Position numbers and translations under genes: made by a program. Below, piece after piece: positions 1 to 22,957 of a stretch of DNA of 34,132 nt. How positions within the stretch are numbered: the first letter of the stretch is position 1; each line of letters begins with the position of its first letter. The DNA is taken from positions 1 to 34,132 of the forward strand of contig JACPWG010000184.1 of the NCBI GenBank assembly GCA_016197205.1, in the 5' to 3' direction. The DNA is from Planctomycetota bacterium (GTDB taxonomy: Bacteria > Planctomycetota > MHYJ01 > WSZJ01 > JACPWG01). The notes beneath the pieces are model-generated. The model did not search any database, was not told the DNA's origin, and worked only from the letters and a program-made list of their open reading frames with translations.

Positions 1-123
1 ACTGTGTTATTACGGGAAGTAGTAGTGATTTGCGAAAACTGGCCTTTGCAAAATTAGACAAAAATAAACAAAATGCATATCCAAATTTTAGAACCGGCGT
101 AGATCTAAATAGCACAAAATATT
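1..123. other. AT-rich (about 30-35% GC) segment of foreign-looking DNA abutting a truncated sigma-factor copy
   Basis: The composition contrasts sharply with the roughly 70% GC of the rest of the window. The truncated sigma reading frame (88-399, minus) runs into this segment and terminates in it. Confidence 0.5.
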
Positions 124-399
124 CTGCTCCCGCAGCTCGTTCAGGCAGAGGTTCACCACGATCCGGAAGAGCCAGGTCCCGAACTTCGCGGTCGGGGCAT
201 ACCGTTCCCGCGCATTCCAGACGCGCACGAACACGTCCTGCCCGAGGTCCTCGCAGGCGGCCCGGTCGTTCGTGTACCGGTACACGGTGTTGAGCACGCT
301 CTTCTGGTACTTTTCGACGAGCTTCGTGAAAGCCTCCTCGTCGCCGCGCTGGAACCGGAGCATGAGGCCGACGTCGGGGTCCTTCGTGTACTCGGGCAT
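88..399 (-). pseudogene. Truncated ECF (sigma-70 family) sigma factor, region 2 only (copy 1). Homology continues through NLCLNELREQ, then the gene is broken by AT-rich DNA.
   Basis: The translation MPEYTKDPDVGLMLRFQRGDEEAFTKLVEKYQKSVLNTVYRYTNDRAACEDLGQDVFVRVWNARERYAPTAKFGTWLFRIVVNLCLNELREQ is a typical ECF sigma region 2.1-2.4. No region 4 follows. It is about 97% identical at the DNA level to 5134-5390. Confidence 0.6.
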
Positions 400-406
400 C
401 TCGGCC

Positions 407-598
407 TCATCCGCGGTGCTTCGGATGGAGGCCCCTGCGGCTCCCCTCCCGGACGGTGATCCCCTGCTCTTCGAACCAGTCCGAGAGCGGGATGACGTAC
501 TTGCGGCTCGTCGCGAGCGCCGTGCGGAAGTCCCCGGAGATCACCTCCCCCTTCTCCTGGACATCGTCCCACGTCCACCAGGAACTGGAATGTGTCAA
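407..598 (-). pseudogene. 3'-terminal fragment of selB (last roughly 50 codons), duplicated copy
   Basis: The C-terminal [50 protein letters not shown] is near-identical to the C-terminus of the full SelB at 5398-7335. Homology stops near 560, and the N-terminal residues MTHSSSWWTWDDV are non-homologous junction sequence. Confidence 0.6.
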
Positions 599-606
599 CT
601 ATCCCT

Positions 607-3390: not shown

Positions 3391-3531
3391 GTCCGAGTCT
3401 CCACTTCAAGGAGGCCCCCGCCGCGTGCTGGAACTCCAGCGCCATCGTCAAGGTGGCGTCGTTCCAACGCGAATGGAGTGTGGCTTCAAATGTCGAGGGG
3501 CACCTTGCCCCCCCGGGCTTGACACCCATGT

Positions 3532-4011
3532 TCATCCGGACGAGGTGGGTGGGTTCGAGGTGTTCGCAGGCAGACCACCCAACGGTCTCTTCATGAACAG
3601 TCCCGCGTTGCCATACGCCCCTTCCCCGAGAGCCTGGAGGGTGTCGTGGATGATGTCCTCGTAGCGCCCCATCTTGCTCGTCCACCTCCCATCCGCTAGC
3701 TGTCGGGCTACATGGACGGGTCTGAGGAGATTAACGAAGACCGCGATCTTCTCGAATCCCGGCTCAAGCCCCCCATCAGGACACCTAGAATAACCCAGAG
3801 TGGCGAAACAGCATTCGAAGGTATCCAGACTCTCTTTGCACGGGCAACTTTGCGGCCAGTAGTAATTGCCGCTCGGGTGGGGCCACCATCTCCGCGTCGT
3901 GTCACACGCGGCCCATGCGACGCAGTTGTACCGGTCATCCGGCGGGCTCGTCACCGAGTAGCTCGCTGGAACCAGCAAGGGGAAGCTCGCAATGAACCGC
4001 GCTAAGCACAC
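3532..4011 (-). CDS. Hypothetical 159-aa protein. It has a hydrophobic N-terminus, possibly a signal peptide, a conserved-looking YNCVAWAA Cys motif and downstream His residues, so a papain-like or NlpC/P60-type hydrolase is a speculative call.
   Basis: The ORF directly abuts the stop of the upstream gene at 4012. The motif order is Cys then His, and the product is Cys-rich. Confidence 0.45.
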   Translation of the reverse strand: MCLARFIASFPLLVPASYSVTSPPDDRYNCVAWAACDTTRRWWPHPSGNYYWPQSCPCKESLDTFECCFATLGYSRCPDGGLEPGFEKIAVFVNLLRPVHVARQLADGRWTSKMGRYEDIIHDTLQALGEGAYGNAGLFMKRPLGGLPANTSNPPTSSG

Positions 4012-5397: not shown

Positions 5398-7335
5398 TCA
5401 TCCGCGGTGCTTCGGATGGAGGACCCTGCGGCTCCCCTCCCGGACGGTGATCCCCTGCTCGTCGAACCAGTCCAGGAGCGGGATGACGTACTTGCGGCTC
5501 GTCGCGAGGGCCGTGCGGAAATCCCCGGAGATCACCTCCCCCTTCTCCTGGATCTGCTTCACGAGGAGCTCGCGCGCCTTCTCGATCGCCTTCTGGTGCA
5601 GGAGGATGTCGTCCTTCAGCCGGATGATCGTCCCCGACTCCACGAGGATCCGCAGCACCTGCGCCGCTTTCTCCGCCGTCGCCTTGAGCAGCCCGGGCAG
5701 CTCGTCCGGACGCGGCGTGTTGAACTCCGTCTCCAACAGGAGCTGCTCGAGCTGCCCCGACAGCCGCCGGAACTCGTCGTTCATGCGGACCTGGAAGTTC
5801 GCGGCCCGCAGGAAGGCGTTCTCCTCGACCACCGCCGCCGTCCGCAACAATTCGCCGAGGACGAGGTCGTACGCTTCGTTCTCCAGCTCGAGCCGGTTAC
5901 GGAAGGCGATCCGCTCGATCCCCGCGCGGAGCGGGTTCTCGGCGTGAAAGGCCGCGAGCGAGGCCAGCGCCTTTTCGCGGGTCTTCGCGAGCGCGTCGAC
6001 GTGGAGGAAGCGGTTCCCCTGGTGAATCGGGATGAGCCGGCCCTTGGCCACGAGCGCGGCCAGGAGCTCCGCCGTCCGCTCGACGGTGAGCCCGGTCTCG
6101 TGCGCCACCGGGTCGCGCGCGAGCGCACGCGCGCCGGAGGCCTTCACCGCATACTCGACGGAGGGCTCCGCGTCCGTCATCACGCGCTCTCGCTCGGAGA
6201 GGTCCTCGAGGACCTCCGCGCGGTTGCGGCGGAGCTTGCGCCCAAGCGAAGCGATGATCTTGCCGCCGCCGATCGTCACCGTCGGCGACTGGTGGCGCAC
6301 GACGAAGTAGTCGCCGGGGGCGGCGACCACCGGGTCTTCCAGGAGGAACTGCACGAGGACCTCTTCGCCCGGGGACGCCTCTTTTCGATCGAGCAGGATC
6401 ATCTTCCCCATGACCTCGGCCGTGCCCGTGTGGAACCGGATCGGCAGGTGGGTCTTCAGCGGAACGGTGAAATCGCTCAGGTAGCTGAGGCGCGCCTCGA
6501 CCGTCGTGCGCGCCTGGAAGTAGCCGGGCGTGGCGACGACGAAGCCGCGGACGACGAGGTTGTGGTCGACGTCGCTCACGTTGAGCGCGGAGGAGTGGCC
6601 GGCACGGACCTCGTTCACGTCGCTCTTGTACGCCTGCAGGCCGCGGATGCGACCCGTCTTGCCGAGCGGGAGGAACTCGACGGTGTCTCCGAGCGAGGCC
6701 CGGCCCGAGAGCGGGATGCCGGTGACGACCGTGCCGAAGCCTTTCGCCGAGAAGACGCGCTGGACCGGCATGCGGAAGGCGCCGTCCGTGCTCTTCGGCG
6801 GCGTGGCGGCCACCATCGCGTTCAGCGTGTCCCAGAAGTGCGGGAAGCCTTCGTCGGTCACGACGGAGATCGGGCAGAGGGGCGCGGTCTCGAGGAAGCT
6901 CCCCTTCACGAGGTCGCGGACCTCTTCGATGACGACCTCGGTCAGCTCGCGATCGACCATGTCGATCTTGGTGACGACGACGATGCCGCGCTTGACCCCG
7001 AGAAGGGACATGATGTGGAGGTGTTCGCGCGTCTGGGGCATGACGCCGTCGTTGGCGGCGACGAGGAGCAGGACGAGGTCGATCCCGGTCGCGCCGGCGA
7101 CCATGTTCTTGACGAACTTCTCGTGCCCGGGCACGTCGACGATGCCGATGCGGCGGCCGTCTTTGAGCAGGCAGGGCGCGAAGCCGAGGTCGATGGTGAG
7201 CCCGCGCTCCTTTTCCTCGGGCAGCCGATCGGGATCGATCCCCGTGAGCCGGCGGACGAGGGAGGACTTGCCGTGGTCGATGTGGCCGGCGGTGCCGATC
7301 ACCACGTTCACGATGGGGGGGGCGACGCGGGGCAT
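5398..7335 (-). CDS. selB: Selenocysteine-specific translation elongation factor SelB
   Basis: The G1 motif [13 protein letters not shown], the motifs DVPGHEKF and [12 protein letters not shown], and the EF-Tu-like domains II/III plus C-terminal winged-helix repeats all align with E. coli SelB along the whole length. The tracked ORF (to 8274) carries an Arg/Pro-rich artefactual N-terminal extension; the real start is [18 protein letters not shown]. Confidence 0.85.
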
Positions 7336-7574
7336 GGCACGGCTTTCCAGGAGGGGCCGGAGATGCGGGGAACGGGGGCCTTCGACCGAGTGCTTGCGGC
7401 TCGTTCGCTGCGTGCGGCGCCGGAAACCGAACCGCGACGGTCTGGGAGCGGTCTCGGCCCGTCCTCTCACGGCCCCGGGTTCAAGCCCACCGACAGCCGG
7501 AGGACGGTCCCGGGCGTCGATGCGCAAGAGTGGAGATTCTAGAGCGGCGGCTTCGAAGATGCAAGCGACGGACG

Positions 7575-8495
7575 CTACCGGTAGAGGCGCAGCACCGCGG
7601 CCACGCGATTCCGTTCCTCCGGCGACGTCGCGAGGATGAGGCTGTCGGCGCGGCGGGTGAGGTCGGCGGGGAAGAAGTCGCGCCCGCGCCGGTCGCTCAC
7701 GACCAGGCCGGCCGCGGCCGCGATCTCGGAGGCGAGCTGACCGTCGAAGGCATTGGCGAGGCCCGCGTAGGCGGTTGTATCCCCTTCGAAGAGGCGCCAG
7801 AGCGTGGACGGGTGGGAGGCAGCGACGCGGTACGGCAGGCGCGCCGCGTCGAAGTGGGAGGCGCGGTTGCCGTCGAGGTCGAGGAGGCGCGGGGCGAGCA
7901 CGACGCGGGACGGGCGGTCGCCGCCGGCGACGCGCAGCGGGCGGCCGTTCCTGAACGCGCGACCGCCCACGGAGTGGTAGACGATCCCGAGCGCGGGCAG
8001 CGCGCAGACGGAGACGAGGCCGGCGCCGGGGAGTTTGACGCCAGGGACCTGGGCGCCGAGCACCACGCCATAAAGTTTGGGGTCGATCCGCGATTTGATC
8101 CTGGCGACGGCGTCGGCGGCGAAGCCGACTCCGATCGCGGTGTCCTCCCACGCCATGGTGCCGACCGCGTAGCTGAGCGTGCCGTCGATGGGGTCGACGA
8201 AGAGGACGGGCGCGCCGTTTCGGGGGCGGAACTCGGCGAGGGAAGGCGACTCCTCCTCGGCGTGGACCTTGCATTCGCGGAGACCGGCGGCGAGGAAGCG
8301 GGCGAGGACGGCCTCCTGGGCCGCGAAGTCGCCGGAGGTGAGGATGCGGCGCGACATGAGCGCATGCGGGTTGGCGCCGGTGGCGGCGGGCTTGAACGAG
8401 ACGGTGGCGAACGTGCGCTCGTCGGCCGCGGCCTCGCCGGCCGCGCGCGCGGCCTCGAGGAGGACCTGGACGAGCTTTTGGACGTCGATCGGCAT
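7575..8495 (-). CDS. Inositol monophosphatase / 3'(2'),5'-bisphosphate nucleotidase family (FIG superfamily) protein
   Basis: The VDPIDGT motif and overall layout are typical of the IMPase/SuhB/CysQ family. Confidence 0.75.
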
Positions 8496-9733: not shown

Positions 9734-11229
9734 GGGTGCATCCCACTTTGGGGGTCAGGTGAATCATGCAGATTTCCGAAGCCGCGGGCTGTCCCACAAC
9801 CGCCCCCATTGCCCGGTCAGGTACAGCGTCCGCAGGCCCATTACATGCTCGGCACCGAGCTCGCCCCAGAACATGCCGGGGCCCTTCATGCGCATGGAGA
9901 ACAGCTGTTTACAGAAACTCTCGATGGCTCCGGATCCGATGCAACGGCCCGCTTTTCGGTTTTGGGCGTAGCGGGTCAAGCCATGATGGTTGTCCAGGTA
10001 CGTAGCGAGCTTGTTCAAGGCCTCAAGCTTTTTTGCCGCGTTCAAACCTCGTGGCTTCATGCGGTCCAGGGCGAGAATCGTGCTGGTGTCCCATCCTCGC
10101 CAGAGCCTGGCCATCATGCGGTCCACCCAGCACGCAGCGGCAGAGGTTTCCTCCCCGTGTAGCGCCTTGGCGGCCTCCCAGACATGCTCCTTCAGGTGAT
10201 AATAGTCGAGAATGTGCACGGCCCATGGGTACTGGTCGGCCCACTGCCAGATCCACTCGGCCCCATCGGCGATGATGATCACCTCCCAGTCGGTCCCCGG
10301 TGCCAAGCGGGTCATCCAGCGATCCAGTACACTCAGCACCTTGGACTTGTCGAGAGGATGGCTGATTCCCCGTTTTTCCCAACCACCCTTCTCGTTTCGC
10401 CACAGGACGAGGGCGGTGCAGGGCTCGCGCCACTCGCCGCCGTTCTGACGCGTGCGGATGCGTCCGCCATCCATCATGACATAGACCTGGCTTCCTTTCG
10501 GAGGAAGACTCTTCGCGGAGTCCGCCGGCGCCTCTGCCATGGCCTCCTTTGCTCGCGGTCCCAGGGCGGCGATGGTGCGCTGCACACGATTGTCGTCCAC
10601 CGTCAGGCCCGACATTTCCTCCACAGCGGCCTGGGCTTTCTCGAAGGACAGGTTGACACCCGCGATGGCGACGGCACTGGCGCAGGCCGCGCTCATGTGA
10701 TTCACGGCCTGAAGTGCCTCCTGAACCGCCCCGAGATGCCGTCCGCACTTCCGGCATACGGCTGTCCACTCTGGCACCCTGATGCTGCCCACGAGCAGTT
10801 GCAAACCGATGACTTTCATACCCTTGCCCTTCAAGGGGCCTTGGCAGAGCTCGCCACTCGGATTCGAGTGTCCTCGATCGCGTAGCGCCTTCCGAAGGTC
10901 CGGATCGGCATGCTCAAGAGCACTAATGGCGAGCGATGCTCCGAGCGACTGTAGCGAGATACGGAAACGCTGCTCTGCTTTGAGGGCAGAGAACTTCGGA
11001 CCGATGCCTCCTAGGAATTCCGTCACAGCGTTCACCAAGTTTCCAGCTTCTGCTTCGATTGCTTGCCGAACGACTGTATCCAGGGTATGCTGGTCCACCG
11101 TGGTATCCTCCTCTGCGCGGCGGGCTGGGCCTGCCGCATGGTTAATTCGGAAGCAGGGAGGATACCACAACTTTATCGGCTGTAAAGATTTCCTACGTTG
11201 AATGCCGGGCCGTTAGGCTGGGATGCACC
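9734..11229 (-). mobile_element. Complete insertion sequence (1496 bp) with 12-bp terminal inverted repeats GGGTGCATCCCA and an 8-bp target-site duplication GGCTTCGG
   Basis: The left end 9734-9745 is gggtgcatccca, and the right end 11218-11229 is tgggatgcaccc, its reverse complement. Identical direct repeats ggcttcgg flank it at 9726-9733 and 11230-11237. A single transposase ORF fills the element. Confidence 0.75.
9764..11170 (-). CDS. DDE transposase (468 aa), possibly ISKra4/ISLre2-like; the family assignment is tentative
   Basis: It lies inside the IR/TSD-bounded element and shows transposase-like conserved segments (VMMDGG, IIADGAEWIW, YYHLKEHVWEAA, CIGSGAIESFCKQ). Confidence 0.7.
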   Translation of the reverse strand: MWYPPCFRINHAAGPARRAEEDTTVDQHTLDTVVRQAIEAEAGNLVNAVTEFLGGIGPKFSALKAEQRFRISLQSLGASLAISALEHADPDLRKALRDRGHSNPSGELCQGPLKGKGMKVIGLQLLVGSIRVPEWTAVCRKCGRHLGAVQEALQAVNHMSAACASAVAIAGVNLSFEKAQAAVEEMSGLTVDDNRVQRTIAALGPRAKEAMAEAPADSAKSLPPKGSQVYVMMDGGRIRTRQNGGEWREPCTALVLWRNEKGGWEKRGISHPLDKSKVLSVLDRWMTRLAPGTDWEVIIIADGAEWIWQWADQYPWAVHILDYYHLKEHVWEAAKALHGEETSAAACWVDRMMARLWRGWDTSTILALDRMKPRGLNAAKKLEALNKLATYLDNHHGLTRYAQNRKAGRCIGSGAIESFCKQLFSMRMKGPGMFWGELGAEHVMGLRTLYLTGQWGRLWDSPRLRKSA

Positions 11230-11677: not shown

Positions 11678-14600
11678 TCAGGGCCTCGGCCCCTGCGGAT
11701 CGCCGGTCTGCGTCGGCGCCTGCCGGATGCGGCGTTCCAGGTCGTGGCCGCCTTCGAGGGCGAGGATGACGAGCTCGGACCCGGCGGCGCCAGCCCAGCG
11801 GCGGACGGAGAGGGAAGGGCGGAAGGCGAGGGGCCACAGAAACTGTGGAAACCACGCGACCGCCTCGCGGGTGTCCGCGCGTGCGAGTGCGAAGCCGACA
11901 AGTGCGCCCGCCGACCGCCATGGGACCTGCCTGTGGCCGTAGGCGACGGAAAGGGCATCCGACGATCCGTCGATGACCTGGAGGCACTCGCCAGTCCCCG
12001 TGTCCCAGACGACGACGGTGTCCCCGGACAGGCCCGCGATGCGGCCACCATCGGGCGAATAGGCGAGGCTCGTGACAGACCGCCCATGCCCGCGGAGGCA
12101 CGCGATCTCCCGGCCCGTCGTCGCTTCCCAGACGCGGACGGTCTTGTCCCAGGACCCGCTCGCGATCCGGACGCCGTCGGGTGAAAACGCGACGCTCCAG
12201 ACAACCTGCTCATGCCCGGGGAGGCACGCGATCTCCCGGCCCGTATCCGCTTCCCAGACGCGTACTGTCCCGTCGTTCGCTCCGCTCGCGATCCGGCCGC
12301 CGTTGGGCGAGAAGGCAATGCTGTTGACTTGGTCGCCATGCCCACGAAGGCAGGCGACCTCCCGGCCCGTCTCCAATTCCCAGACCCGTACCGTGTTGTC
12401 GCACGACCCGCTCGCGATCCGGCCGCCATCGGGTGAGAAGGCGACGCTTTCGACACTGCCCTCATGCCCGCGGAGGCAGGCGATTTCCCGGCCCGTCGCA
12501 GCGTCCCAGATGCGCACGGTCTTCTCTAGCGACCCGCTCGCGATTCGGCCGCTGTCAAGCGAGAATGCGACGCTCGTGACTTCTTTCTCATGTCCGCGGA
12601 GGCAGGCGATCTCCTGGCCCGTCGAAACGTCCCAGATGCGCACCGTCTTCTCCCGCGACCCGCTAGCGACTCGGCCGCCGTCGGGCGAGAAGGTGACGCC
12701 GCAGACCCAATCATTAAAAGTGCGGACGCAGGCTAGCTCCCGGCCCGTCGTCGCGTCCCAGACGCGGACGGTCTTGTCCCAGGACCCGCTCGCGATCCGG
12801 CCGCCGTCGGGTGAGTAGGCTACACTCTCTACACTGCTTTCGTGCCCCCGGAGGCAGGCAACCTCCTCGCCCGTCTCCGCTTCCCAGACACGCACAGTGT
12901 GGTCGTACGACGCGCTCGCGATCCGGCCGCCGTCGGGCGAATAGGCCACACTCGTGAACATGCTCGTATGCCTGTGGAAGGGGATCTCCCTGCCCGTCCT
13001 GACTTCCCTCTCGCGCATGTCCTGGTCGTACGCCCCGCTCCACTTCCAGCCACCGTCGGGCGAGTAGGCGTCGCCTTCCACGAAGTCCTGATGGGGGCGA
13101 ATGCAGGCGACCTGCCGGCCCGTCTCCGCTTCCCAGACGCGTACTGTCCGGTCGCACGACCCGCTCGCGAGCCGGCCGCCGTCGGGTGAGAAGGCAACGC
13201 TTTCGACACTGCTCGCATGACCGCGGAGGCAGGCGATCTCCCTGCCCGTCGCCGCGTCCCAAACGCGTACGGTCTTGTCGCGTGAGGCGCTCGCGATCCG
13301 GCGGCCGTCGGGCGAGAAGGCAACGCTCTTGACGGAGAGTTGATGCCCGCGAAGACATGTGACCTGCCGGCCCGTCTCCGCTTCCCAGACGCGTACTGTC
13401 CGGTCGCACGACCCGCTCGCGAGCCGGCCGCCGTCGGGTGAGAAGGCAACGCTTTCGACACTGCTCTCATGACCGCGGAGGCAGGCGATTTCCCTGCCCG
13501 TCGCCGCGTCCCAGACGCGCAGAGTCTCGTCGTTCGAGCCGCTCGCGATCCGGCCGCCGTCGGGCGAGAAGGCGACACTCGTGACCGAGTACTCGTGCCC
13601 GCTGAGGATCAACTCCAGCGGGGAGTCCACGGCCGTCGCGGGGGGCCGGATCGATCGCAGCCATGGGAAGTCCGGCGTCCGGCGCTCCTTCGCCGCCCGC
13701 CACGCCTCCAGGAGCGCGCTTAATTTCGGGCCCTCCCGCTCCCAGGGCGCACCCCCCGGCCCCCATCCGCCTTCCGGCGGGTCATAGTGCTCGGCGGCCT
13801 CCGCGCAGTCGTGCCACCAGCACGAGTTCCACAGGCACTGGAAGAGCGCTGTCGGATGGAGAGCGACGAACGCCGCGTCCCGCGAGATCGCCTTCCCCAG
13901 GAGCCGCACCCGCTCGCGCCCCGGCCGGTCCGCCTCAAGCACCCGCTTCGCCTCGGTGAAATCCCCTACCAGCTCTAGCGCCCGCCCGGCCGCCGCCTTC
14001 ACCTCCAGGTACACGAGGTCCGTCAGCACCGCCTCCAGATCGTCCTCACGCCCCGCCCGCGCGAGATGCGCGGGCAGATGCGCGATCATGTACGCCGACA
14101 TCCGCTCCGCACCCCGCCCGTGCTCCCTCATTCCCTCCTCGGCCAGCCGCCGCTCTCCATCCGCCGCGTCGACGGCGTACGGGCCCGCTAGGTGCAGACC
14201 CGTACGCCGGTCCTTCGTCGTCAGCCAGTCGCTGACAGACTGGTGGAAGGGCGCGACGGTCTCTGCCTCCTCCTTTGCGGTCGTCCCGGTCGCGGCCCGT
14301 CGGATCGGGAAGAGCGACCCCAACTCGCCGAGCTGTTCCCGCAGCTCGAAATCCGAGAGCCCCGCCGCCGCCGCCGCGATGCCCAGCGGAAGCGGCCCAC
14401 GCTGCGCGCAGATGGCACCCACCAGCGACCGGGTCCCGCGGCCGTACTCCTGCACCTCCGGGAACTGGCGCTGGAAGAACTTCTGGTAGTACCCCGCCAG
14501 CCCGACGGGGAACTCCTCCGGGCGGTCCAGCGAGAGCCGCCCCACGACCAGCTCCTCAAGCACGACCTTGGCGTAGAGGAACACACCCTCGCTTCGTCTC

Positions 14601-16354
14601 ACGACCTCGTCCACGGCCACCCCGCGCGGAGCGAACCCACGCGCGGTCAGCTCGCTCCACAGGTAGTCCCGTATGTCCTGCAGGTTCTCTGCCCGCTCCG
14701 CCTCGAACACGTAGGGCGCCAGCCCGGCCAGCGTCGACATTACCCCCGATTCGGGTCGGCTCGTCACGAGGAGGCGAAGCCAGAGTGGCGTCCTGGGCCA
14801 GCAGTCGCGCACCACCTCCGCCAGCTCGTTCCGACCGTTGCGCGTGCTCTCGTCGAGCCCGTCCAGGATCACCAGCCGTGGCGTATCCGGCGCCGGGAAA
14901 TCCTTCCCCAACGGCTGGACCCACAGGGTGTCGAAGACCGTGTACGCGTTCGCCGCGGCCTGCGCCTCCACGTCCAGGGCCTGCAACCGCCGATCGTACT
15001 CCGGCAGGTGCTGCGCCATCTGGTACGCTAGCGAAAGTAGCGCCTTGCGCGGGTCGGCCTTTTCATCGTGGCCGTGCACGCAGAGGTGATGGGCGGCGAC
15101 CCGGCCGTGGTAGTGCGCCAAGTGGGCGGCGAAGGCGGACTTGCCCACGCCCGGCCCGCCGACGAGCCAGAAGATCCGGCTCGCATCCGTCGGGCCCGCC
15201 ACGGGCGGAGCGCCCGGAGCCGCCTGAGCCACGGGAGCGGCAGCCGCGCTGGTCGCCCCGACCTCGCCGGCCAGCCAGCGATCCACCTCCGCGCGGAGCC
15301 AGTGCCGCCCGGTGAAGGCCGCCACGTGCCGGGCGATGTCCGCGTCGAAATCGAGCGGCCGGAGCGCTCGTTTGAGCCGCGCCTGCCCTCCCTCGAAGTC
15401 CAATTTGTCGCACTCCAGGGCGTCCAGCAGGCGCTTGAAGCGGCTCGCGTACTTCTCTGCCTTCTCCTCCGGAGGCAGGCAATCCCGCAGGTCCAGGTAT
15501 TGGATTCGGCAGATCGATATCGGCGGTCCGTTCGCGAGCCCGGCCACGAGCACGGGGATGATCAGCATGTTGCGCTCCAGGGCCTTCGCGATCTCGTTGA
15601 GGCAGAACCCGTCCGTCGAGGACGGATCACGCGGGTCGCGCCGGCGCACGGAGTGCGGCGTCATCAGAAGGAGCATTTTGTCGCAGCTCCTGAGTCCCTC
15701 CTCGATGTAGGCCGGGAAGTCCTGCCCGAGGCGGAGCCGTTCCACGTCGAACCAGACTTTGTGCCCGCGCCGTTCCAGGTCCCGCTTGATCCGCGACGCG
15801 ACGGGCTCGTGCTCGTCGTGCCCGTAGCTGAGGAAGACGCGGATCGGCCGGTCGGCGGCCGACGGTGAGGCAGCGCCAGACTCGGGTCCAACGGCCGGAC
15901 TCGATGTGCCCATCGCCGCGGTCGCCGGCGTGCCCGCGGTCAGGCTGACGGTCGTAGCCACGGTCGCCCGCGTCGAAGACGCCGCGCCGGGTCCGAGCGC
16001 GTCCTTCGCGCGCAGGATCGTCATCCGGTGGCCCACGGACGCGACGCCGATTTCCTTTAGCAAGTCGTGCGTCAGGTCGCGAAACGGCGCGTCCGCCGTG
16101 TCGCTCAGATGATTTGCTGCGAAGGCCTCGGCGTATTGCGGCAGCCCGAGCTCGGCCAGCCATTCGCGAATGTCCACCCCGGTCTCTCCGATCACACAGT
16201 TCGGGACCGTGTCAGAAGTCCGAGCTCTGCGATACCCCAGAGCAGCCGATGGCCGCAACCAAAGGGACGAGCCACCGAAGACGCCGAAAACACCGAAAGA
16301 CGAACCGCGAATTGCGCCGACTGCGCGAATTTTCTCCTGGGAATTCGTTGCCAA
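11678..16354 (-). CDS. STAND NTPase with SAM, TIR, NACHT and about 14 WD40 repeats (1558 aa as tracked; start uncertain, possibly GTG near 16195)
   Basis: A SAM-like segment (IREWLAELGLPQYAEAFAANHLS...LLKEIGVASVGHRMTILRAKDAL) is followed by a TIR domain (IRVFLSYGHDE...GFCLNEIAKAL, carrying the conserved catalytic-Glu motif). Next comes a NACHT domain with Walker A GGPGVGKS, Walker B LVILDGLDE and sensor LLVTSRP. It ends with many GHxxSVxSVAFSPDGxRIASGSxDxTVRVWDAxTGRE WD40 repeats. Confidence 0.85.
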   Translation of the reverse strand: MATNSQEKIRAVGAIRGSSFGVFGVFGGSSLWLRPSAALGYRRARTSDTVPNCVIGETGVDIREWLAELGLPQYAEAFAANHLSDTADAPFRDLTHDLLKEIGVASVGHRMTILRAKDALGPGAASSTRATVATTVSLTAGTPATAAMGTSSPAVGPESGAASPSAADRPIRVFLSYGHDEHEPVASRIKRDLERRGHKVWFDVERLRLGQDFPAYIEEGLRSCDKMLLLMTPHSVRRRDPRDPSSTDGFCLNEIAKALERNMLIIPVLVAGLANGPPISICRIQYLDLRDCLPPEEKAEKYASRFKRLLDALECDKLDFEGGQARLKRALRPLDFDADIARHVAAFTGRHWLRAEVDRWLAGEVGATSAAAAPVAQAAPGAPPVAGPTDASRIFWLVGGPGVGKSAFAAHLAHYHGRVAAHHLCVHGHDEKADPRKALLSLAYQMAQHLPEYDRRLQALDVEAQAAANAYTVFDTLWVQPLGKDFPAPDTPRLVILDGLDESTRNGRNELAEVVRDCWPRTPLWLRLLVTSRPESGVMSTLAGLAPYVFEAERAENLQDIRDYLWSELTARGFAPRGVAVDEVVRRSEGVFLYAKVVLEELVVGRLSLDRPEEFPVGLAGYYQKFFQRQFPEVQEYGRGTRSLVGAICAQRGPLPLGIAAAAAGLSDFELREQLGELGSLFPIRRAATGTTAKEEAETVAPFHQSVSDWLTTKDRRTGLHLAGPYAVDAADGERRLAEEGMREHGRGAERMSAYMIAHLPAHLARAGREDDLEAVLTDLVYLEVKAAAGRALELVGDFTEAKRVLEADRPGRERVRLLGKAISRDAAFVALHPTALFQCLWNSCWWHDCAEAAEHYDPPEGGWGPGGAPWEREGPKLSALLEAWRAAKERRTPDFPWLRSIRPPATAVDSPLELILSGHEYSVTSVAFSPDGGRIASGSNDETLRVWDAATGREIACLRGHESSVESVAFSPDGGRLASGSCDRTVRVWEAETGRQVTCLRGHQLSVKSVAFSPDGRRIASASRDKTVRVWDAATGREIACLRGHASSVESVAFSPDGGRLASGSCDRTVRVWEAETGRQVACIRPHQDFVEGDAYSPDGGWKWSGAYDQDMREREVRTGREIPFHRHTSMFTSVAYSPDGGRIASASYDHTVRVWEAETGEEVACLRGHESSVESVAYSPDGGRIASGSWDKTVRVWDATTGRELACVRTFNDWVCGVTFSPDGGRVASGSREKTVRIWDVSTGQEIACLRGHEKEVTSVAFSLDSGRIASGSLEKTVRIWDAATGREIACLRGHEGSVESVAFSPDGGRIASGSCDNTVRVWELETGREVACLRGHGDQVNSIAFSPNGGRIASGANDGTVRVWEADTGREIACLPGHEQVVWSVAFSPDGVRIASGSWDKTVRVWEATTGREIACLRGHGRSVTSLAYSPDGGRIAGLSGDTVVVWDTGTGECLQVIDGSSDALSVAYGHRQVPWRSAGALVGFALARADTREAVAWFPQFLWPLAFRPSLSVRRWAGAAGSELVILALEGGHDLERRIRQAPTQTGDPQGPRP

Positions 16355-16461: not shown

Positions 16462-16932
16462 CTATTCACGCACGCCTGCGATTTTCGCCAGTTCGCCCGT
16501 GTATTCTTGCAGGTCACGCTGCAGGATCTTCAGCTCTTCGCGCAGCCCCTGCGCCCCTTTCCATGCCTGCTCGTGCTCGAACGGACTCACCGCCGGCCCG
16601 CGACCTGCCTCCCAGTAGCCGAGCAACGGATGCCACTTTGCCAGGAACGGCCGCACGCGTCGATTGAGGACCGCCAGGGCGATCCCGCCAACCGACTGCT
16701 TCGAGATCCCGATGTCGGGTCCCGCCTCACGCAGGATCTCGCGCGTGGTCTTGAACAGGCTGTAGAGCGAAGTGAGCGCCTCTCGCAGGAGTCCGTGGTC
16801 GACCGCCAACGGTTCGGTGGAAACGCGCGTGGCCAGCTCCACGTAAAGCGACCAGGCTGCACGGCGCTGCGTCGGGTTCGCCTCCCACTTCGCATCGATA
16901 TCGAGAAAGCCGAGCTTCAAGCTCACGCCCAC
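16462..16932 (-). CDS. Hypothetical 156-aa protein, predicted mostly helical, in an operon between the TIR/SLOG and STAND genes
   Basis: The ORF is on the same strand with 108-bp gaps on either side. No family was recognised. Confidence 0.45.
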   Translation of the reverse strand: MGVSLKLGFLDIDAKWEANPTQRRAAWSLYVELATRVSTEPLAVDHGLLREALTSLYSLFKTTREILREAGPDIGISKQSVGGIALAVLNRRVRPFLAKWHPLLGYWEAGRGPAVSPFEHEQAWKGAQGLREELKILQRDLQEYTGELAKIAGVRE

Positions 16933-17040: not shown

Positions 17041-19086
17041 CTATCGCGCCGCGGGCGGAGGGGTGCTTTCCCACACGCGCGACATGCCCAGGAGCAGCAG
17101 CTCCACAATGCGGTCGAGGTCCCGGGTGCGGAACAGTTCGAGGTTCTCGGCCACGGAGAGTCCGTTCGCCCGCGACAGGCCTTCCACGCCTGTTTCTCGC
17201 AGGAAGGCGGTCATGTCCGGGTAGTCCCACCAGGCAACGCCCTGCTGCTCATAGATGCGACGCATCTCCTCCGCATGAGGCGCCTGCTTCTGGTAGTCCC
17301 AGGTGAATTCCTGCCGAGGGCGTCCCTCCAGGAGCTCGACGAGGACGGCGCAGGCCCCGCCGAATGCGCCGCAGACGTACAGGGGGCGGGCCGCCCGCAC
17401 GGTGAGGAGCGCCTCTTCGAGGACGCCGGGGATGCGCCCGCTGTACCACGCTTTCTCCCGGCCGCCATCCGGACGCGCTGTCATCGTCGGGCCCACCTTT
17501 CCGCCGATGACGACGCGCGCGTGCACCTCGGCGACCTGTCGCTCCCGCATCGCCGTCATCCCCCGAGCCCACGCGTACCGGCGCACCGGACTCGTCGCCG
17601 CGAAAAACACCGGTTCCGCAACAAAGGTCCCGGGTTCGAGCGCCTCGACGCCGGGGGGGCGCTGCGTGCGGATGAAGGTGGCCAGATTCTGGAGCTTCGC
17701 GCGCTTTTCCTTGGGCAGCGTGTCATACGGCAACGGCCAGCCGACATAATTCCGAATCCGCTCAACGGGCGGCAGGGTGCTCAGCGACTGATGGGCGCGG
17801 ATAAGATCGCACAGCGCGACCGTGTAGCCTTCGCTACCCAGATGGCCGCCGTACGCGAGGCCGGCGCCCCTGACCAGGAGATGCCGAGAGACCTCGAGCA
17901 ACGCCGAGTCGAGGTGCTCGCGCAGGACGCCGTAGCGCTCGGGGTCGTCGCTTTCTGAAACCGACACCGCGACGGTCCATTGCGAGAGCTTCTTGTCCTT
18001 GCCCGCGCGCTGAAGGGGAGTCTCCACCCGATGTCCGAGCGGCCCGAGCACCTCCAGCTCCTCGTCCCCCAGAGGAGGGTCCGGGTAGAGGACGCTGCTC
18101 TGGGGCGGGAGCCGGACCAGCGAGGCGAGCTCCGGCGGCGAGCTGAAAACGAGATCCTCCGGGCGTTTTTGCCCTGCGAGGACTTTCGAGACGTGCAGAA
18201 AGCGAAGCGTCTCCTTCAGCAGGAGGTCGATGGCGCGTTGCGCACCGGCGTTGCGGTAGGAAAGCACGGGCGCGTTCCCCAGGTACGGGAAGCTGCGCGT
18301 GTCGAGACCGGCGAGGGCATCCACGACCACGAACGGCCGCTGATGCTCCTTTGCCAGGAGCACTTCGCGTCGACACCAGGGGCGCCCGCCGTACCGCGTG
18401 GTTGCCAGCACGAGCAAGGCGGAGTCGCGCACGCCCCGGCTGATCTCCTCTGCGAACTCGGAACCGCCGTCGATCCGGGCGCTATCCACCCATGCCTCGA
18501 CGGGCTGCGTGGCGTTCAGGTGCTCGACCACCGCGTTGAAGACCCGCGGCTTCTTGTCGATGTCGAGCTTTGTGTGGCTGACGAACACCTTGAGCGGGAC
18601 GCGCGGACCTTGTTCGAGCCCCATCAGGAAACGGCACAGCGCGATGACTACGCGACGCTCGGTCCAGGCGGTGCGTTGGCCCCATGGCTGCGCATGAGCT
18701 TTGACAAAGCTGGTTCCCTCCAGGCGACGATCGAGCGGCCATGCGGACTCCGAGAGCTGGATCGGCAGGAACTGGTGCCGACCGTCCCGGCACCGCTCTG
18801 CCAGGTCGCCGACAAACGCGGGCCACGCCTGCCGTCCCGGCGGCACTTCGGCCGGTTCGAGCACCATGTCGCTGTCGGCGAAAACGACGACGAGGCTGTG
18901 TTCCGCCTCGTCAAGATCGTGGCGCGCGGGGGGGAGGCCAGTGCCATCCTCGGGCAGAACCACGGTCGGCACGCGCAGACCCGGCAGCGCGGGATCGTCA
19001 TGCAGCGCACGGTGGATGGCGACGGCGAGCTCCCGCGCGTCGGTCGAGTCAGGGTGAAAGACGAGGTGAACCAGCAGGGGCGTCAC
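17041..19086 (-). CDS. TIR-domain protein with a C-terminal SLOG/LOG-like (STALD-like) domain (681 aa). The start is a GTG overlapping the stop of the upstream MVP gene (GTGA).
   Basis: The central TIR is KVFVSHTKLD...GSEFAEEI...LLVLATTRYGGRPWCRREVLLA, with the catalytic-Glu motif. The N-terminal roughly 130 aa are a possible second, degenerate TIR-like fold. The C-terminus has Rossmann-type Gly-rich motifs LVRGAGLAYGGHLG and VVIGGKVG...LYVCGAFGGACAVLVELLEG, reminiscent of LOG/SLOG domains. Confidence 0.7.
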   Translation of the reverse strand: MTPLLVHLVFHPDSTDARELAVAIHRALHDDPALPGLRVPTVVLPEDGTGLPPARHDLDEAEHSLVVVFADSDMVLEPAEVPPGRQAWPAFVGDLAERCRDGRHQFLPIQLSESAWPLDRRLEGTSFVKAHAQPWGQRTAWTERRVVIALCRFLMGLEQGPRVPLKVFVSHTKLDIDKKPRVFNAVVEHLNATQPVEAWVDSARIDGGSEFAEEISRGVRDSALLVLATTRYGGRPWCRREVLLAKEHQRPFVVVDALAGLDTRSFPYLGNAPVLSYRNAGAQRAIDLLLKETLRFLHVSKVLAGQKRPEDLVFSSPPELASLVRLPPQSSVLYPDPPLGDEELEVLGPLGHRVETPLQRAGKDKKLSQWTVAVSVSESDDPERYGVLREHLDSALLEVSRHLLVRGAGLAYGGHLGSEGYTVALCDLIRAHQSLSTLPPVERIRNYVGWPLPYDTLPKEKRAKLQNLATFIRTQRPPGVEALEPGTFVAEPVFFAATSPVRRYAWARGMTAMRERQVAEVHARVVIGGKVGPTMTARPDGGREKAWYSGRIPGVLEEALLTVRAARPLYVCGAFGGACAVLVELLEGRPRQEFTWDYQKQAPHAEEMRRIYEQQGVAWWDYPDMTAFLRETGVEGLSRANGLSVAENLELFRTRDLDRIVELLLLGMSRVWESTPPPAAR

Positions 19087-22000
19087 GACCGCCCCCTCGG
19101 CGCGGAAGAAGGCCCGCCGGGCGCCGGCGGCGGGGCCGCCGGGCCGGACCCGCTCCCCGCCGGGGTCGCCGGCTTCGGACCGTCCGCGCCGCCGCCGCTC
19201 CCGCTCCCGCCGCCCGCGCCGCCGAACCGCTCGCGCAGCGCCTGCAGCGTCGGCAGCACCTTCGTTCCGCCCAGCACTTCCGAAAGGATCGTGCCGACGT
19301 CCTTCCCCTTGTAGAGCGAGACGAGGTTCATGTTCGACGCGACCTCGCCCAGCATGATCTTGTCGCCGAGCGCGGTCATCGCCTCCACCAGCCCGCGCTG
19401 GATCGCGTTTCGCTCCGCGACGGTCGCCGTCGATTGCGCGTTGATCAAGAGCACCTCCAGGTCCCGCAGCCGCGCCGCGCGCTCGACCTCCGCCGCGGCC
19501 AGCGTCCGCTGCGCCTCGGCCTGCACGCGCGCCTCCTCCGCCGCCCGCTTCAGCTCCGCGGCCTTCGCCTCGTCCTCACGGGCGACCCGGGCCTTCTGCG
19601 CAGCCGACTCCCGCGCATCGGTCAGGTCCTGCCGCTCCCGCTCCACGCCCTCGCCGCCCCGCAGCTCCGCGAGCCGCGCCTCGTGACCCAGCCGCCGCAC
19701 GGCCTCCGCGACCTTCGCCTCCCGCTCCTTCGCCTCCTCCGTCAAGCGCGCCATCTCCTTGTCCAGCTCGGCCCGCAACTTCGTCGACGCGAGCTCCTCT
19801 TGCGCCTTCCGGTCGCCGATCTGCAGGGTCACCCACTCCGTGTGCACGCGCTGCATCAGCTCCGCCACGTCGCGGTTCTCGATGACCGCGGACAGGACCT
19901 CCACCTCCGTCACGACCGAGCCGTTCTCCGCGAACGACCGACCCGGGCGCCGCCCGTCCTTCGGCTCGCCCAGGACGGTGTCCCGCACCAGCGCGGGGAG
20001 CTGCGGCCAGAGCTGCGTCAGCGAAAGCGCACGGCTCCGGCTCCGCACGAGCGACCGCAGGTGCTCGCACATCACCTGGACGTAGTTCTCGTGGTTGAAC
20101 CACTTTTCCCGCTGCTCCGCCAGAAAGGTCACGGAGTACGAGACGCGGATGTTCACCTTCACGAAGTCGAACGTCTCGACCGTAATGACGTCCGAGACGC
20201 GATTGCCGAGCGTGCGCAGGAAGCAGGTTTTGAGCAGGCGGTCGTCGGTCTTCGGCGTCCCCATCGAAAGGGAGATCGAGCAGAGGGTCTCTTCGTACCC
20301 GAGCAGCGTCACGCACGGGCCCTCGACGACGCGCCGCGCGTTCGCGGACGTGACGAGGATCGCCGTGTTGTTCGGCACCGTGATGGAGAGCGCCCACGGG
20401 GTCGTGATCGCAGTCGCGGTCCGCTTGTGCGGCTCGTTCGCCGCGATCCACAGGTTCCAGTCGTCCGCGGGGACGATGCGCGTGATTTGCACCTCCTTGC
20501 GCGGATCGACGAGGTACGACTGCTTCCCGCGAATGAGCCGCACCTCGCCGGTCGTGAGGTCGCGGACGTAAATGCCGCTCTTCTGGTCGATGCCGACCGC
20601 CTCGATGAAGATGCGGGCATGGTCGTTGCCGACGACGGCCTGCCCGGTCTCCGGCGACAGGACCTCGATCTCGTTGAACGGGAAAAAAAAGGTGGAAACG
20701 CCGGTGAGCAAGAGCTCGTCGCCCGGGAAGTAGGCGTCCTTCTCCAGCACGAAGGCGCGGGGAAGCCGCTGGGCCAACTCGGCCCGCGCGATGGGCGAAA
20801 TCACGCGGAGCCAGAGGGCGCGCTGCGGCAGCAGTTCGTACGCGTCGTACACGCGATTGCGCGAGCCGACGCTCATGAACGTGTCGTACGGGCCGGGGAA
20901 GACGCGCGCGGGCCCGACCTTGATCTCGCGCTTGCCGTCGGCGTCGATGAGCACGCAGTACTCCTTCTCGCCGAGAACGACCGCGTTGCGGACGAGCCGG
21001 GCCTGGCCGGCCTGCTTCTCGAGGGCGCGCCGCAACGTGGGCGAGGCGAGCACTTCGGCGAGCGAGGGCGGCGCCGCGGCCGCGGAGGCCTGCGCGGCGA
21101 GATTCGCGCCACCGGCGGCGCTCCCGGCCGGGAAGGCGCCCTGCACCGCCTGGAACATCGCGTTGGGCGCGGCGGCCGCCGACGCGGGGGCGGGCATGCC
21201 GGCCGGGGGACCGCCGGGGGACGGCGGCACCGGGGCCTTGCGATGCCGTGCGCGCGCCGACTGGTCGATGTAGACGTCAGCCGCCTGCTGCGCGCGCCTC
21301 GGGACGCCCTGCGCCTCGGCCTCGCTCTGCGCGCCCCCCTCCTCTGCGACCTGGACCTGCTCCGCGAGGGCGTCGATCGCTCCTTGCGCGACGGCCCGGC
21401 GCTCCGGCGCCTCCTGCTTGAGCTGCGCCAATATCTGACGCGCGGCCGCCGCGCCGAGCGCCGCCCCGGTCCCGTCCACGGACGTGTCGGGCACGATGTC
21501 GACGCCGGTCGGCGGGATGTAGAACTGGGTGTCGAGGCCGCGGATCACGATGAGCTGGCCCCGGTTCAGGTCCACGGGCTTCGGCGGCGCGGGCGAGGCG
21601 CCCGCAGGGCCGCCCTCGGCGAGCCGCTCGGCGGTGGAACGGGTGATCGTCGCGGACCGGGCCGTGACCTCATAATAGGGCGCGGTCGTATCGACCGGGC
21701 CATACACCTCGACGAGGAGGTATTGATTCGAGGCGAGCTTGTGCGCGTCGCGCACCTCGACCCGCTGCCCCGGTCGCAAATAGAAGCAGCACGGGCCGGG
21801 GATCATGGAGCGGGTCCCGTTCCGGAGCGGGCGCGACTCGTTGCGGCCGGGACGGAATTTACCGTTGGGCCCGCCGTCGCTTTCGAGAAGAGGGTTGTAG
21901 AGCACGGCGTACTGGTTGTCCCCCAGCTCGACCATCGACTGGGGCTTGCCCGTGACGTCCTCGCGAAAGCCCCCTTCGCCGTCGTCGACGACGACGCGGT

Positions 22001-22139
22001 CGGCCGCGGTCGGGGAAACCATGGTCGGGCCGACGTGGAGCGTGACTTCCCCCTTGTCGTCGTCCTGGACCCACAGGAACTGGCGATCGGTGACCGGGAT
22101 CTTGCGGCTGGTGCGTTCGTTCATGGTTGTAGCCTCCAC
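19083..22139 (-). CDS. Major vault protein (MVP) homologue (1018 aa)
   Basis: The N-terminus [32 protein letters not shown] matches the MVP start [46 protein letters not shown] matches EGIYVQDVKTGKVRAVIG, and [25 protein letters not shown] matches [25 protein letters not shown] in the shoulder domain. A long coiled-coil ([26 protein letters not shown]...) corresponds to the cap-helix, and the tail is Gly/Pro-rich like the cap-ring. Confidence 0.85.
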   Translation of the reverse strand: [1018 protein letters not shown]

Positions 22140-22281: not shown

Positions 22282-22761
22282 TCAGTAGCCGCCGGAGGAC
22301 GCGTCGACCTTCGGCGCTGGGTCGACTGCTTCAGCGGCGGGCTGGTAACAGATGAGCGCCCCCGCGACGAGCGCGAGCAGCACGCCGAGCAGGTTGATCG
22401 GTCGCAGCCGCTCCCGGCCCGTCGCGACCATGAGGAGCAGCGTCACGGCAGGGTACAAGGCCGTCAGCGGGATGACGCGGCACGCGTCCGCCCGCTCCAG
22501 CGTGGACATCCACACGACGAACGCCACCCCCGCGGTCAGGGCGCCCATCCCGGCCAGGGCCACGCCGCGCTCCCAGCGGATGGTCACGCCGCTCCGGAGC
22601 AGCCACCCGAGGATGAGCACGTTCACAAGGGTCGTGAAGATGCAGCTCCAGACCACGGCGGGCCGTGCCTGCAGCGTCTGCGCGGCGAGCTTGTTGAAGA
22701 AACCCCAGAAACCCCAAACCACGATCACGAACAGGCACGAGCGGGCCAAGGCCAGGTTCAT
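22282..22761 (-). CDS. Small EamA/DMT-like 4-TM membrane protein. The start is taken at the internal Met MNLALARSCLFVIVVWGFW.
   Basis: Four hydrophobic helices in a roughly 159-aa product. The tracked ORF has an improbable Cys/Pro-rich N-terminal extension. Confidence 0.55.
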   Translation of the reverse strand: MNLALARSCLFVIVVWGFWGFFNKLAAQTLQARPAVVWSCIFTTLVNVLILGWLLRSGVTIRWERGVALAGMGALTAGVAFVVWMSTLERADACRVIPLTALYPAVTLLLMVATGRERLRPINLLGVLLALVAGALICYQPAAEAVDPAPKVDASSGGY

Positions 22762-22957
22762 CGCAGGCTCCTCGCAGGGCGGCACCGTCGCTCGACATGG
22801 AGGGCGGTCGTCCGCGGGTGGGCATTCACCACCGAGACACGGGAGCGACACGGAGAACCTTCGCCCGGCTCGTCCACCTCTCCGTGCATTCTCCGTGACT
22901 CGGTGAGTCCGTGACTCCGTGGTGAAGCGGTCGGGTCTCGAAACGGCTACCTCCGCC

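Follow-up and report, generated by a model that had tools for sequence, protein, structure and literature searches.

A tandem-TIR protein with a C-terminal SLOG domain, encoded beside a bacterial major vault protein gene: a candidate SLOG-gated NADase

What might be the function of a protein combining TIR and SLOG domains when its gene overlaps the end of a gene for a bacterial major vault protein (MVP) homolog, and do the two products belong to a single system? These questions are raised by a 34,132-nucleotide stretch of a Planctomycetota bacterium (contig JACPWG010000184.1, assembly GCA_016197205.1; hereafter the window), in which positions 17041..19086 of the minus strand code for a 681-residue protein that we refer to as TIR-SLOG. 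TIR-SLOG fusions were predicted a decade ago as nucleotide-signaling conflict proteins; the SLOG families, including SLOG cluster2, were reportedly defined by Burroughs et al. in Nucleic Acids Research in 2015, and the fusion is said to have been known computationally since then. We consider it fairly likely that the protein is a self-contained, Thoeris-like TIR NADase gated by its SLOG domain, which would unite NAD+ signaling and effector functions in one chain. Below we present the evidence for this proposal and weigh it against three alternatives, including one in which the MVP gene is a functional partner.

The open reading frame (ORF) is called identically by NCBI, as a 681-residue protein. 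Its GTG start codon at 19086 overlaps the TGA stop of the MVP ORF (19083..22139, minus strand) in the tetranucleotide GTGA (19083..19086, minus strand), as can be read directly from the minus-strand sequence of the junction (...GAGGGGGcggtcGTGAcg...), and a Shine-Dalgarno-like GAGGGGG (19092..19098, minus strand) ends 5 nt before the GTG. Because the N-terminus M-x-x-PLLVHLVFHP, starting at residues 1-4, is common to the homologs, and the stretch from the preceding in-frame stop to PLLVHLVFHP offers no alternative start codon, both the start and the GTGA overlap, the latter already recorded in an earlier note on this DNA, are secure. Pfam searches recovered TIR_2 (PF13676) at residues 167-255 (E=5.7e-9; 37 bits against a cut-off of 28) and SLOG cluster2 (LD_cluster2, PF18163) at residues 367-651 (E=1.9e-59; 201.8 bits against a cut-off of 25.3), with the latter match spanning positions 2-264 of the 264 in the profile, i.e. 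the whole model. Judged by these scores both assignments lie far beyond chance. We aligned 81 homologs (alignment A1, the basis of all conservation counts given here as x/81) and used this alignment as the input for AlphaFold2, which yielded a model with a mean predicted local distance difference test score (pLDDT) of 91.3 and a predicted template modeling score of 0.90; the models behind the fold and architecture assignments have pLDDT values of 91 and 94. Taken together with the Pfam matches, the model divides the protein into a degenerate TIR domain, a catalytic-type TIR domain, a linker and a SLOG domain, four segments that are about equally conserved across the 81 homologs (0.65-0.69 consensus identity).

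The central domain (residues 163-300; 18187..18600, minus strand) displays the flavodoxin-like TIR fold. Its translation contains the motif R235-P-W-C-R-R-E241 (18364..18384, minus strand; codon of E241 at 18364..18366), placed by the model at the start of the helix formed by residues 236-247, and thus has the conserved catalytic glutamate expected at the beginning of helix alphaC (WxxxE). Within this motif R235, C238, R239 and E241 are present in 81/81 sequences and W237 in 80/81; the F168-x-S170-H171...D175 box is invariant as well. The motif further aligns with WCWDE of the CRISPR-associated TIR protein Cat1, such that E241 corresponds to the Cat1 glutamate. Hence, the central TIR keeps all the catalytic hallmarks, and we predict it to be of the NAD+ hydrolase/cyclase type. 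The earlier note had recognized this domain as a TIR, and the Pfam match, the Cat1 alignment, the invariant glutamate and the fold in the AlphaFold2 model all agree with it; of the SxWCxxE-type geometry that it described, the W-C-x-x-E part is present, but the first position is an arginine (R235) rather than a serine.

The N-terminal domain (residues 1-157; 18616..19086, minus strand) contains a second TIR fold, which was found by structure prediction alone: there is no Pfam match at E<=1, hhalign detects no similarity to either the central TIR (probability 0.1%) or the SLOG domain, and the domain has neither a sequence-level TIR signature nor a catalytic glutamate. In the model, the helix comprising residues 88-98, which is equivalent to the helix bearing the catalytic motif, begins with an invariant tryptophan (W88), and the position one turn (4 residues) later, V92, is occupied by V, A or I in 81/81 sequences. 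Because these residues stand where the catalytic glutamate would be, the N-terminal TIR is predicted to be catalytically degenerate, with the residue equivalence being set by the secondary-structure register and not by residue-level superposition. The suspicion voiced in the earlier note, that the first 130 or so residues form a second, degenerate TIR-like fold, is thereby strengthened. We found no mention of a cryptic N-terminal TIR fold in SLOG cluster2/TIR proteins in the literature searched.

The two TIR domains are followed by a conserved linker (residues 301-366; 17989..18186, minus strand) with an invariant YPDPP...E motif (Y334, P335, D336, P337 and E343 in A1) and small alpha/beta elements in the AlphaFold2 model, which leads into the SLOG cluster2 domain (residues 367-651; 17134..17988, minus strand). 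This C-terminal domain has a Rossmannoid SLOG fold with glycine-rich nucleotide loops, and the paired glycine-rich motifs pointed out in the earlier note are both present and conserved across the 81 homologs. The first, GAGLAYGGHLG (residues 407-417; 17836..17868, minus strand), has G407, L410, Y412, G413 and G414 in 81/81 and H415 in 76/81; the second, CGAFGGACAVLVELLEG (CGAFGGACAV...; residues 572-588; 17323..17373, minus strand), has G576 and G577 in 81/81 and G573 in 80/81. The translation also contains the motif R551-I-P-G554-V-L-E557-E558 (17413..17436, minus strand), in which R551, P553, G554, E557 and E558 are again found in 81/81. In the predicted structure the domain is closest to the 3' cyclic ADP-ribose (3'cADPR) receptor domain of ThsA, and it thus combines structural similarity to the ThsA SLOG domain with the association with TIR or Sir2 domains. 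ThsA contacts 3'cADPR via G289 and S290 of its GS loop, R371, K388, G399 and E403 (10.1101/2022.05.07.491051). The G554...E558 spacing of TIR-SLOG equals that of the ThsA ligand contacts G399...E403, a correspondence drawn from spacing and not from aligned residues. A PDB sequence search with the family profile matched TIR domains but no SLOG structure (matches to FGFR2 were noise, with E ~0.25). STALD (PF18185) is not matched at E<=0.1 by TIR-SLOG, and a distant homolog from Aureispira matches it only below threshold (E=0.0093; 15.9 bits against a cut-off of 24). The earlier description of this domain as SLOG/LOG-like and STALD-like therefore holds as regards the SLOG fold and its ThsA-like structure, whereas in sequence the domain belongs to SLOG cluster2, a sister family of STALD.

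A word-indexed search recovered 680 homologs of TIR-SLOG, the best 120 of which are 600-708 residues long (most of them 630-700), are 52-66% identical and contain the same two Pfam domains; named sources among these 120 include Corallococcus, Bryobacteraceae, Rhodocyclaceae, Verrucomicrobiales and Planctomycetes. An exhaustive profile search against 1.84 billion cluster representatives (clusters at 50% identity) returned 4368 proteins at E<=1e-3, 1040 of them at E<=1e-30, and the best 150 matches are mostly 650-720 residues in length and cover profile positions of about 3-671. Distant full-length relatives (25-31% identity, 94-98% coverage) occur on plasmids of Gloeothece, Priestia, Klebsiella, Aureispira and Pseudomonas. 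Since the family is large, conserved over its full length and has plasmid-borne distant relatives, the three-domain TIR-TIR-SLOG chain is old, widespread and mobile. Some homologs are already labeled 'SLOG cluster2/TIR domain' by JGI; the 2025 systematic survey of Thoeris systems left stand-alone TIR proteins aside, and no TIR-SLOG fusion is listed in its supplements. One homolog, in a metagenome-assembled genome of a gammaproteobacterium (locus L008, 10001-12017), aligns in several frames (at least 4 tblastn pieces) and is either a pseudogene or affected by long-read frameshift errors.

To obtain contextual information we collected 19 TIR-SLOG loci, namely ten from a set with one genome per species (L001-L010), five by exact-protein lookup (L011-L015) and four from plasmids (L046-L049); the sampling by peptide patterns favors close relatives. 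A Pfam census of the 108 ORFs within 5 kb of TIR-SLOG in 17 loci was compared with a control of 91 MVP-flanking ORFs, also from 17 loci, both censuses resting on a greedy choice of the longest ORF in high-GC DNA, which places some ORFs on the wrong strand. The commonest families flanking TIR-SLOG were TIR_2 (12) and ThsB_TIR (9), and the enrichment of TIR neighbors over the control is significant (Fisher p=0.004) even allowing for one hidden TIR in the latter. By an independent phmmer census, 11 of the 19 distinct loci contain extra TIR genes. All-against-all clustering of the neighbors revealed no conserved neighbor for TIR-SLOG, and none for MVP.

The plasmid-borne and island-borne members illustrate these associations. 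On a plasmid of Aureispira sp. (L049, 4942-9447), five same-strand genes respectively code for a nucleoside 2-deoxyribosyltransferase-like protein, a ThsB_TIR protein, TIR-SLOG, a ThsB_TIR/TIR_2 protein and a further ThsB_TIR protein, and the cluster adjoins type III-B CRISPR genes (cmr6, cas6). A Priestia plasmid (L046) has the order TIR, TIR, hypothetical gene, TIR-SLOG. The Klebsiella pneumoniae plasmid pKpnB199 (L047, 5138-7976) carries a split member of the family, with a gene for a 397-residue TIR-TIR protein and one for a 270-residue stand-alone LD_cluster2 protein (E=1.9e-73) overlapping by one base; it is accompanied by a divergently transcribed gene for a small, 204-residue TIR protein homologous to the ThsB_TIR gene of locus L014, and the unit is flanked by ISNCY transposases on what is a clinical conjugative plasmid. 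Two loci (L013 and L014) are Tn7-like islands with ThsB_TIR and AbiTii, and a Corallococcus island (L011) combines TIR, patatin, TIR-SLOG, TIR-STAND and TIR-TPR genes.

Thus, the architecture with a dead and a live TIR in tandem followed by a ThsA-like SLOG domain, the invariance of the catalytic and nucleotide-loop residues, and the enrichment of ThsB-type TIR neighbors all argue for a SLOG-gated TIR NADase. In such a protein the SLOG domain would bind an NAD+-derived nucleotide, namely a cADPR-type isomer or a related ADP-ribose (ADPR) derivative, generated by a TIR enzyme that might be encoded separately or be the protein's own TIR. In the window, the most plausible source of the signal would be a SAM-TIR-NACHT-WD40 protein encoded two genes downstream; elsewhere it might be the small ThsB-type TIRs, and in solitary loci the protein's own TIR or an unlinked one. 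Ligand binding may alter how the tandem TIRs pack or oligomerize, upon which the central TIR would cleave NAD+ by means of E241, leading to depletion of NAD+ or to signal amplification as in abortive-infection immunity. The dead N-terminal TIR could serve as a built-in version of the partner that TIR active sites need, either keeping the enzyme inactive or providing a ready-made TIR-TIR interface. MVP, while co-transcribed in the window, would stand outside the conserved logic of the family.

The proposed logic is that of ThsA with SIR2 replaced by a TIR, or that of TIR-SAVED, TIR-STING and Cat1 with SLOG as the sensor. As in the ThsA (SIR2-SLOG)/ThsB pair of type I Thoeris, a domain of NAD+-cleaving type lies N-terminal to the SLOG domain and genes for ThsB-type TIRs are often adjacent. 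However, the enzymatic domain of ThsA is SIR2, whereas that of TIR-SLOG is a TIR preceded by a dead TIR; its SLOG domain is LD_cluster2 and not STALD; and many TIR-SLOG loci have no separate TIR gene. The window itself has no small ThsB gene, with the SAM-TIR-NACHT-WD40 gene being the TIR gene found downstream. The resemblance to type III Thoeris (ThcA/ThsD with ThcB1-4) lies in the multi-TIR operons around a SLOG protein, with 2-3 extra small TIR genes in Aureispira and Priestia; the Aureispira cluster in particular is similar in its multi-TIR make-up but is not recognized by type III Thoeris models, and in the window TIR and SLOG are fused in a single 681-residue chain. When compared with TIR-SAVED/Cap4-like proteins, TIR-STING and the CARF-TIR protein Cat1, TIR-SLOG differs in having SLOG as its sensor, so that an ADPR-derived ligand is expected and not a cyclic oligonucleotide or cA4, in having two tandem TIRs, and in requiring no CD-NTase or CRISPR partner. 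With respect to Pfam SLOG cluster2, it is a full-length, high-scoring member whose cryptic N-terminal TIR goes unrecognized by any Pfam model.

Several observations weigh against this proposal. Sequence identity of 52-66% among the best 120 homologs, which span at least 4 phyla, is unusually high for a defense gene. In two loci (L012 and L015) TIR-SLOG stands alone amid housekeeping genes and the surrounding 10 kb hold no further TIR, so that a separate producer of the signal is not obligatory. The PADLOC ThsA and ThsB models do not recognize the protein, the sole PADLOC match being to PDC-S66 (E=0.0034), and the NCBIfam ThcB4 model gives it 15 bits against a cut-off of 220; the distant plasmid homologs match the type III models weakly and far below the cut-offs, the Priestia relative reaching 23 bits against 110 for ThcA and 41 against 220 for ThcB4. 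By sequence criteria, TIR-SLOG is not a member of STALD or of any curated Thoeris family. Moreover, the match between the SLOG motif and the ThsA ligand site depends on motif spacing and not on residue-level superposition, and the literature searched yielded no biochemical or phage-defense work on any member of the family. Finally, the invariant R551, E557 and E558 would fit a catalytic, LOG-like SLOG domain equally well.

This last point leads to the alternative that fares best, though we regard it as rather unlikely: the SLOG domain might be an enzyme and not a sensor, performing a LOG-like N-glycosidic cleavage, e.g. in processing or degrading the product of the adjacent TIR, which would make the protein a two-step nucleotide-processing enzyme. 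The LOG phosphoribohydrolase motif consists of an arginine and the glutamate of a PGGxGTxxE-type sequence, and the invariant R551, P553-G554 and E557-E558 resemble this constellation. Aravind and colleagues have proposed SLOG domains both as sensors and as N-glycosidases (PMC9503650). Nevertheless, no Pfam LOG or Lysine_decarbox match was obtained at E<=0.1, and a G...E motif also provides ligand contacts in ThsA, so that it does not discriminate between a sensor and an enzyme.

A second alternative, which we hold to be improbable, is that TIR-SLOG is a non-immune housekeeping regulator of NAD+ or nucleotide metabolism built from TIR and SLOG folds. The gene of the two solitary loci is indeed a lone insert among transport and metabolic genes, the sequence is highly conserved across phyla, and no homolog was matched in a collection of 50,697 phage records. 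Its distribution is patchy, however, with only 10 relatives in a pattern-based scan of one genome each from 185,579 species (a scan biased towards close relatives), and its presence on plasmids, in Tn7-like cargo and beside CRISPR, Abi and multi-TIR islands, along with the enrichment of ThsB-type TIR genes as neighbors, speaks for an immune rather than a housekeeping role.

The remaining alternative concerns the gene string of the window itself. Downstream of TIR-SLOG, and on the same strand, lie a gene for a 156-residue protein (16462..16932, minus strand) after a gap of ~108 nt and, ~107 nt further, the gene for the 1558-residue SAM-TIR-NACHT-APAF1_C-WD40 protein (11678..16354, minus strand). 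According to Pfam the latter comprises SAM_1 (residues 61-116), TIR_2 (173-294; E=8e-21), NPHP3_N/NACHT (391-537), APAF1_C (749-809) and ~12 WD40 repeats. It thus joins a SARM1-like SAM-TIR head to an NLR-type NTPase and WD40 repeats, and its gene belongs to the string that includes MVP. Next to the TIR genes, on their downstream side, is a UPF0236 transposase-like ORF (9764..11170, minus strand), which hints that the cluster may sit at the boundary of a mobile element, and beyond it the selenocysteine elongation factor SelB (5398..8274, minus strand); on the other side, MVP is preceded by a gene for an EamA protein (22282..22851, minus strand). A scan for promoters and terminators between 11 and 23 kb was uninformative, with terminator-like sites being fewer than in shuffled sequences and none lying in the gaps between the minus-strand genes. 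At its left end (1..4000) the window has a G+C content of 55-60% as against 62-78% elsewhere, and this part includes an ORF for 927 residues (607..3390, minus strand) with no Pfam match.

The 156-residue protein belongs to a family of ~165-residue proteins with 865 homologs, of which the 120 listed are 58-65% identical and the named ones are mostly cyanobacterial; Pfam, NCBIfam, PADLOC and PDB gave no match to the family. Where the downstream gene is identifiable, the family member is located immediately upstream of a TIR gene in 6 places out of 7 (the exception being L052): a TIR-GUN4 gene in L043 (7001-7498) and L050 (4001-4510), a TIR gene at both sites in L044 (7001-7498 and 13067-13564), TIR-SLOG in L008 (9487-9969) and SAM-TIR-NACHT-WD40 in the window. 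The gap to the TIR gene is ~19 nt in L043 and L044, and in L050 there is a 7-nt overlap. This suggests a generic partner of bacterial TIR proteins that has not been described so far, e.g. a regulator, an immunity protein or an adaptor. We reject a role as a dedicated partner of TIR-SLOG, given that the family precedes varied TIR proteins and in the window precedes SAM-TIR-NACHT-WD40.

The upstream neighbor of TIR-SLOG, a protein of 1018 residues, is a genuine MVP homolog, with Pfam matches to MVP_shoulder (1e-17), Vault_3 and Vault_4 and phmmer matches to eukaryotic MVP structures (E=1.9e-21 over residues 387-931), and it has 335 bacterial homologs. Nearly all of the 120 relatives listed are ~900-990 residues long, which makes it longer by about 50 residues. 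It contains an Ala/Pro-rich low-complexity stretch at approximately residues 290-370 and a Gly/Pro-rich C-terminal tail, to which most relatives stop aligning around residue 966-999; this extra tail is compatible with a recent junction. We assembled 29 MVP loci (L016-L042 along with L053 and L054, the two closest relatives at 70% identity) and searched for the pairing from both directions. TIR-SLOG was not encountered near MVP in any of the 29 (tblastn with each TIR-SLOG domain in L016-L041; among the called genes of L042, L053 and L054 there is neither TIR nor SLOG), nor was MVP found near TIR-SLOG in any of the 19 TIR-SLOG loci (tblastn in L001-L010, called or annotated genes in the others), and among the 91 MVP-flanking ORFs of the 17 censused loci no TIR family had two or more members. 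With the pairing found in 0/29 and 0/19 loci respectively other than the window, the linkage is lineage-specific and looks like a one-off. Furthermore, in one of the 70%-identical relatives, which is metagenomic (L054; 7001-9865 and 9862-11697), there is likewise a 4-nt overlap between the MVP stop and the start of the next gene, which codes for an HSP90 (HtpG-like) protein, and such an overlap is therefore not specific to TIR-SLOG. The GTGA overlap shows co-transcription of MVP and TIR-SLOG in this genome but not a dedicated relationship, and the adjacency is probably incidental. Both results undercut the suggestion of the earlier note that the coupling reflects a partnership of fixed stoichiometry, with TIR-SLOG as a packaged cargo or cap enzyme.

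That suggestion nonetheless deserves consideration in view of a 2026 preprint, which describes TEP1 as a TIR-like NADase that is active within vaults and locates ADP-ribose to the shoulder of MVP (10.64898/2026.05.01.722283). By this parallel, MVP and TIR-SLOG would be produced in a fixed ratio, the latter being enclosed in a vault-like shell or docked onto it, and the shell would confine or regulate the NADase activity of TIR-SLOG. Along with the preprint, the 4-nt overlap with its Shine-Dalgarno-like motif 5 nt upstream, and the SAM-TIR-NACHT-WD40 gene on the same strand, whose TIR-NACHT-WD40 order echoes the C-terminal, DUF4062-NACHT-WD40 part of TEP1, are consistent with the idea. Like the eukaryotic vault (MVP, TEP1, PARP4 and vault RNA), the window has MVP, TIR domains of NAD+-cleaving type and a TIR-NACHT-WD40 protein, but it is devoid of TROVE, DUF4062 and PARP domains in Pfam searches and of vault RNA or any other family in an Rfam search. 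The pairing is a singleton, absent even beside the closest MVP relatives and from every other bacterial MVP or TIR-SLOG locus examined; no TIR, DUF4062 or WD40 family recurs among the MVP-flanking ORFs; the overlap has its counterpart with the HSP90 gene; and TIR-SLOG of the window has no extra domain that might be an MVP-docking module when compared with its hundreds of MVP-less homologs. We accordingly consider a vault-associated enzyme highly unlikely. The chance appears slimmer still that in this lineage an MVP shell was recruited to a TIR-based NAD+ immune module of tandem-TIR-SLOG and SAM-TIR-NACHT-WD40, although if this were true the 4-nt overlap would reflect real co-assembly, the shell would be a bacterial counterpart of the eukaryotic vault, with its TEP1 in an ADP-ribose-binding MVP cage, and what vaults do with NAD+-derived nucleotides could be addressed in a simple prokaryotic setting. 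Given the report of a TIR-like NADase in vaults, the MVP link would matter if real.

Returning to the SLOG-gated NADase that we favor, the fusion of SLOG cluster2 with TIR was already known; what the present analysis adds is the cryptic N-terminal TIR, the structural proximity of the SLOG domain to the cADPR receptor of ThsA and the quantitative evidence from gene neighborhoods. We propose the large TIR-SLOG family as a candidate for one more system of the Thoeris type, with a TIR, and not SIR2, as the ligand-gated NADase. Representatives on plasmids of Klebsiella, Priestia and Aureispira are tractable, with the split form of pKpnB199 being suited as a test system, and the tandem arrangement of a dead and a live TIR could show how TIR-TIR contacts switch on catalysis.

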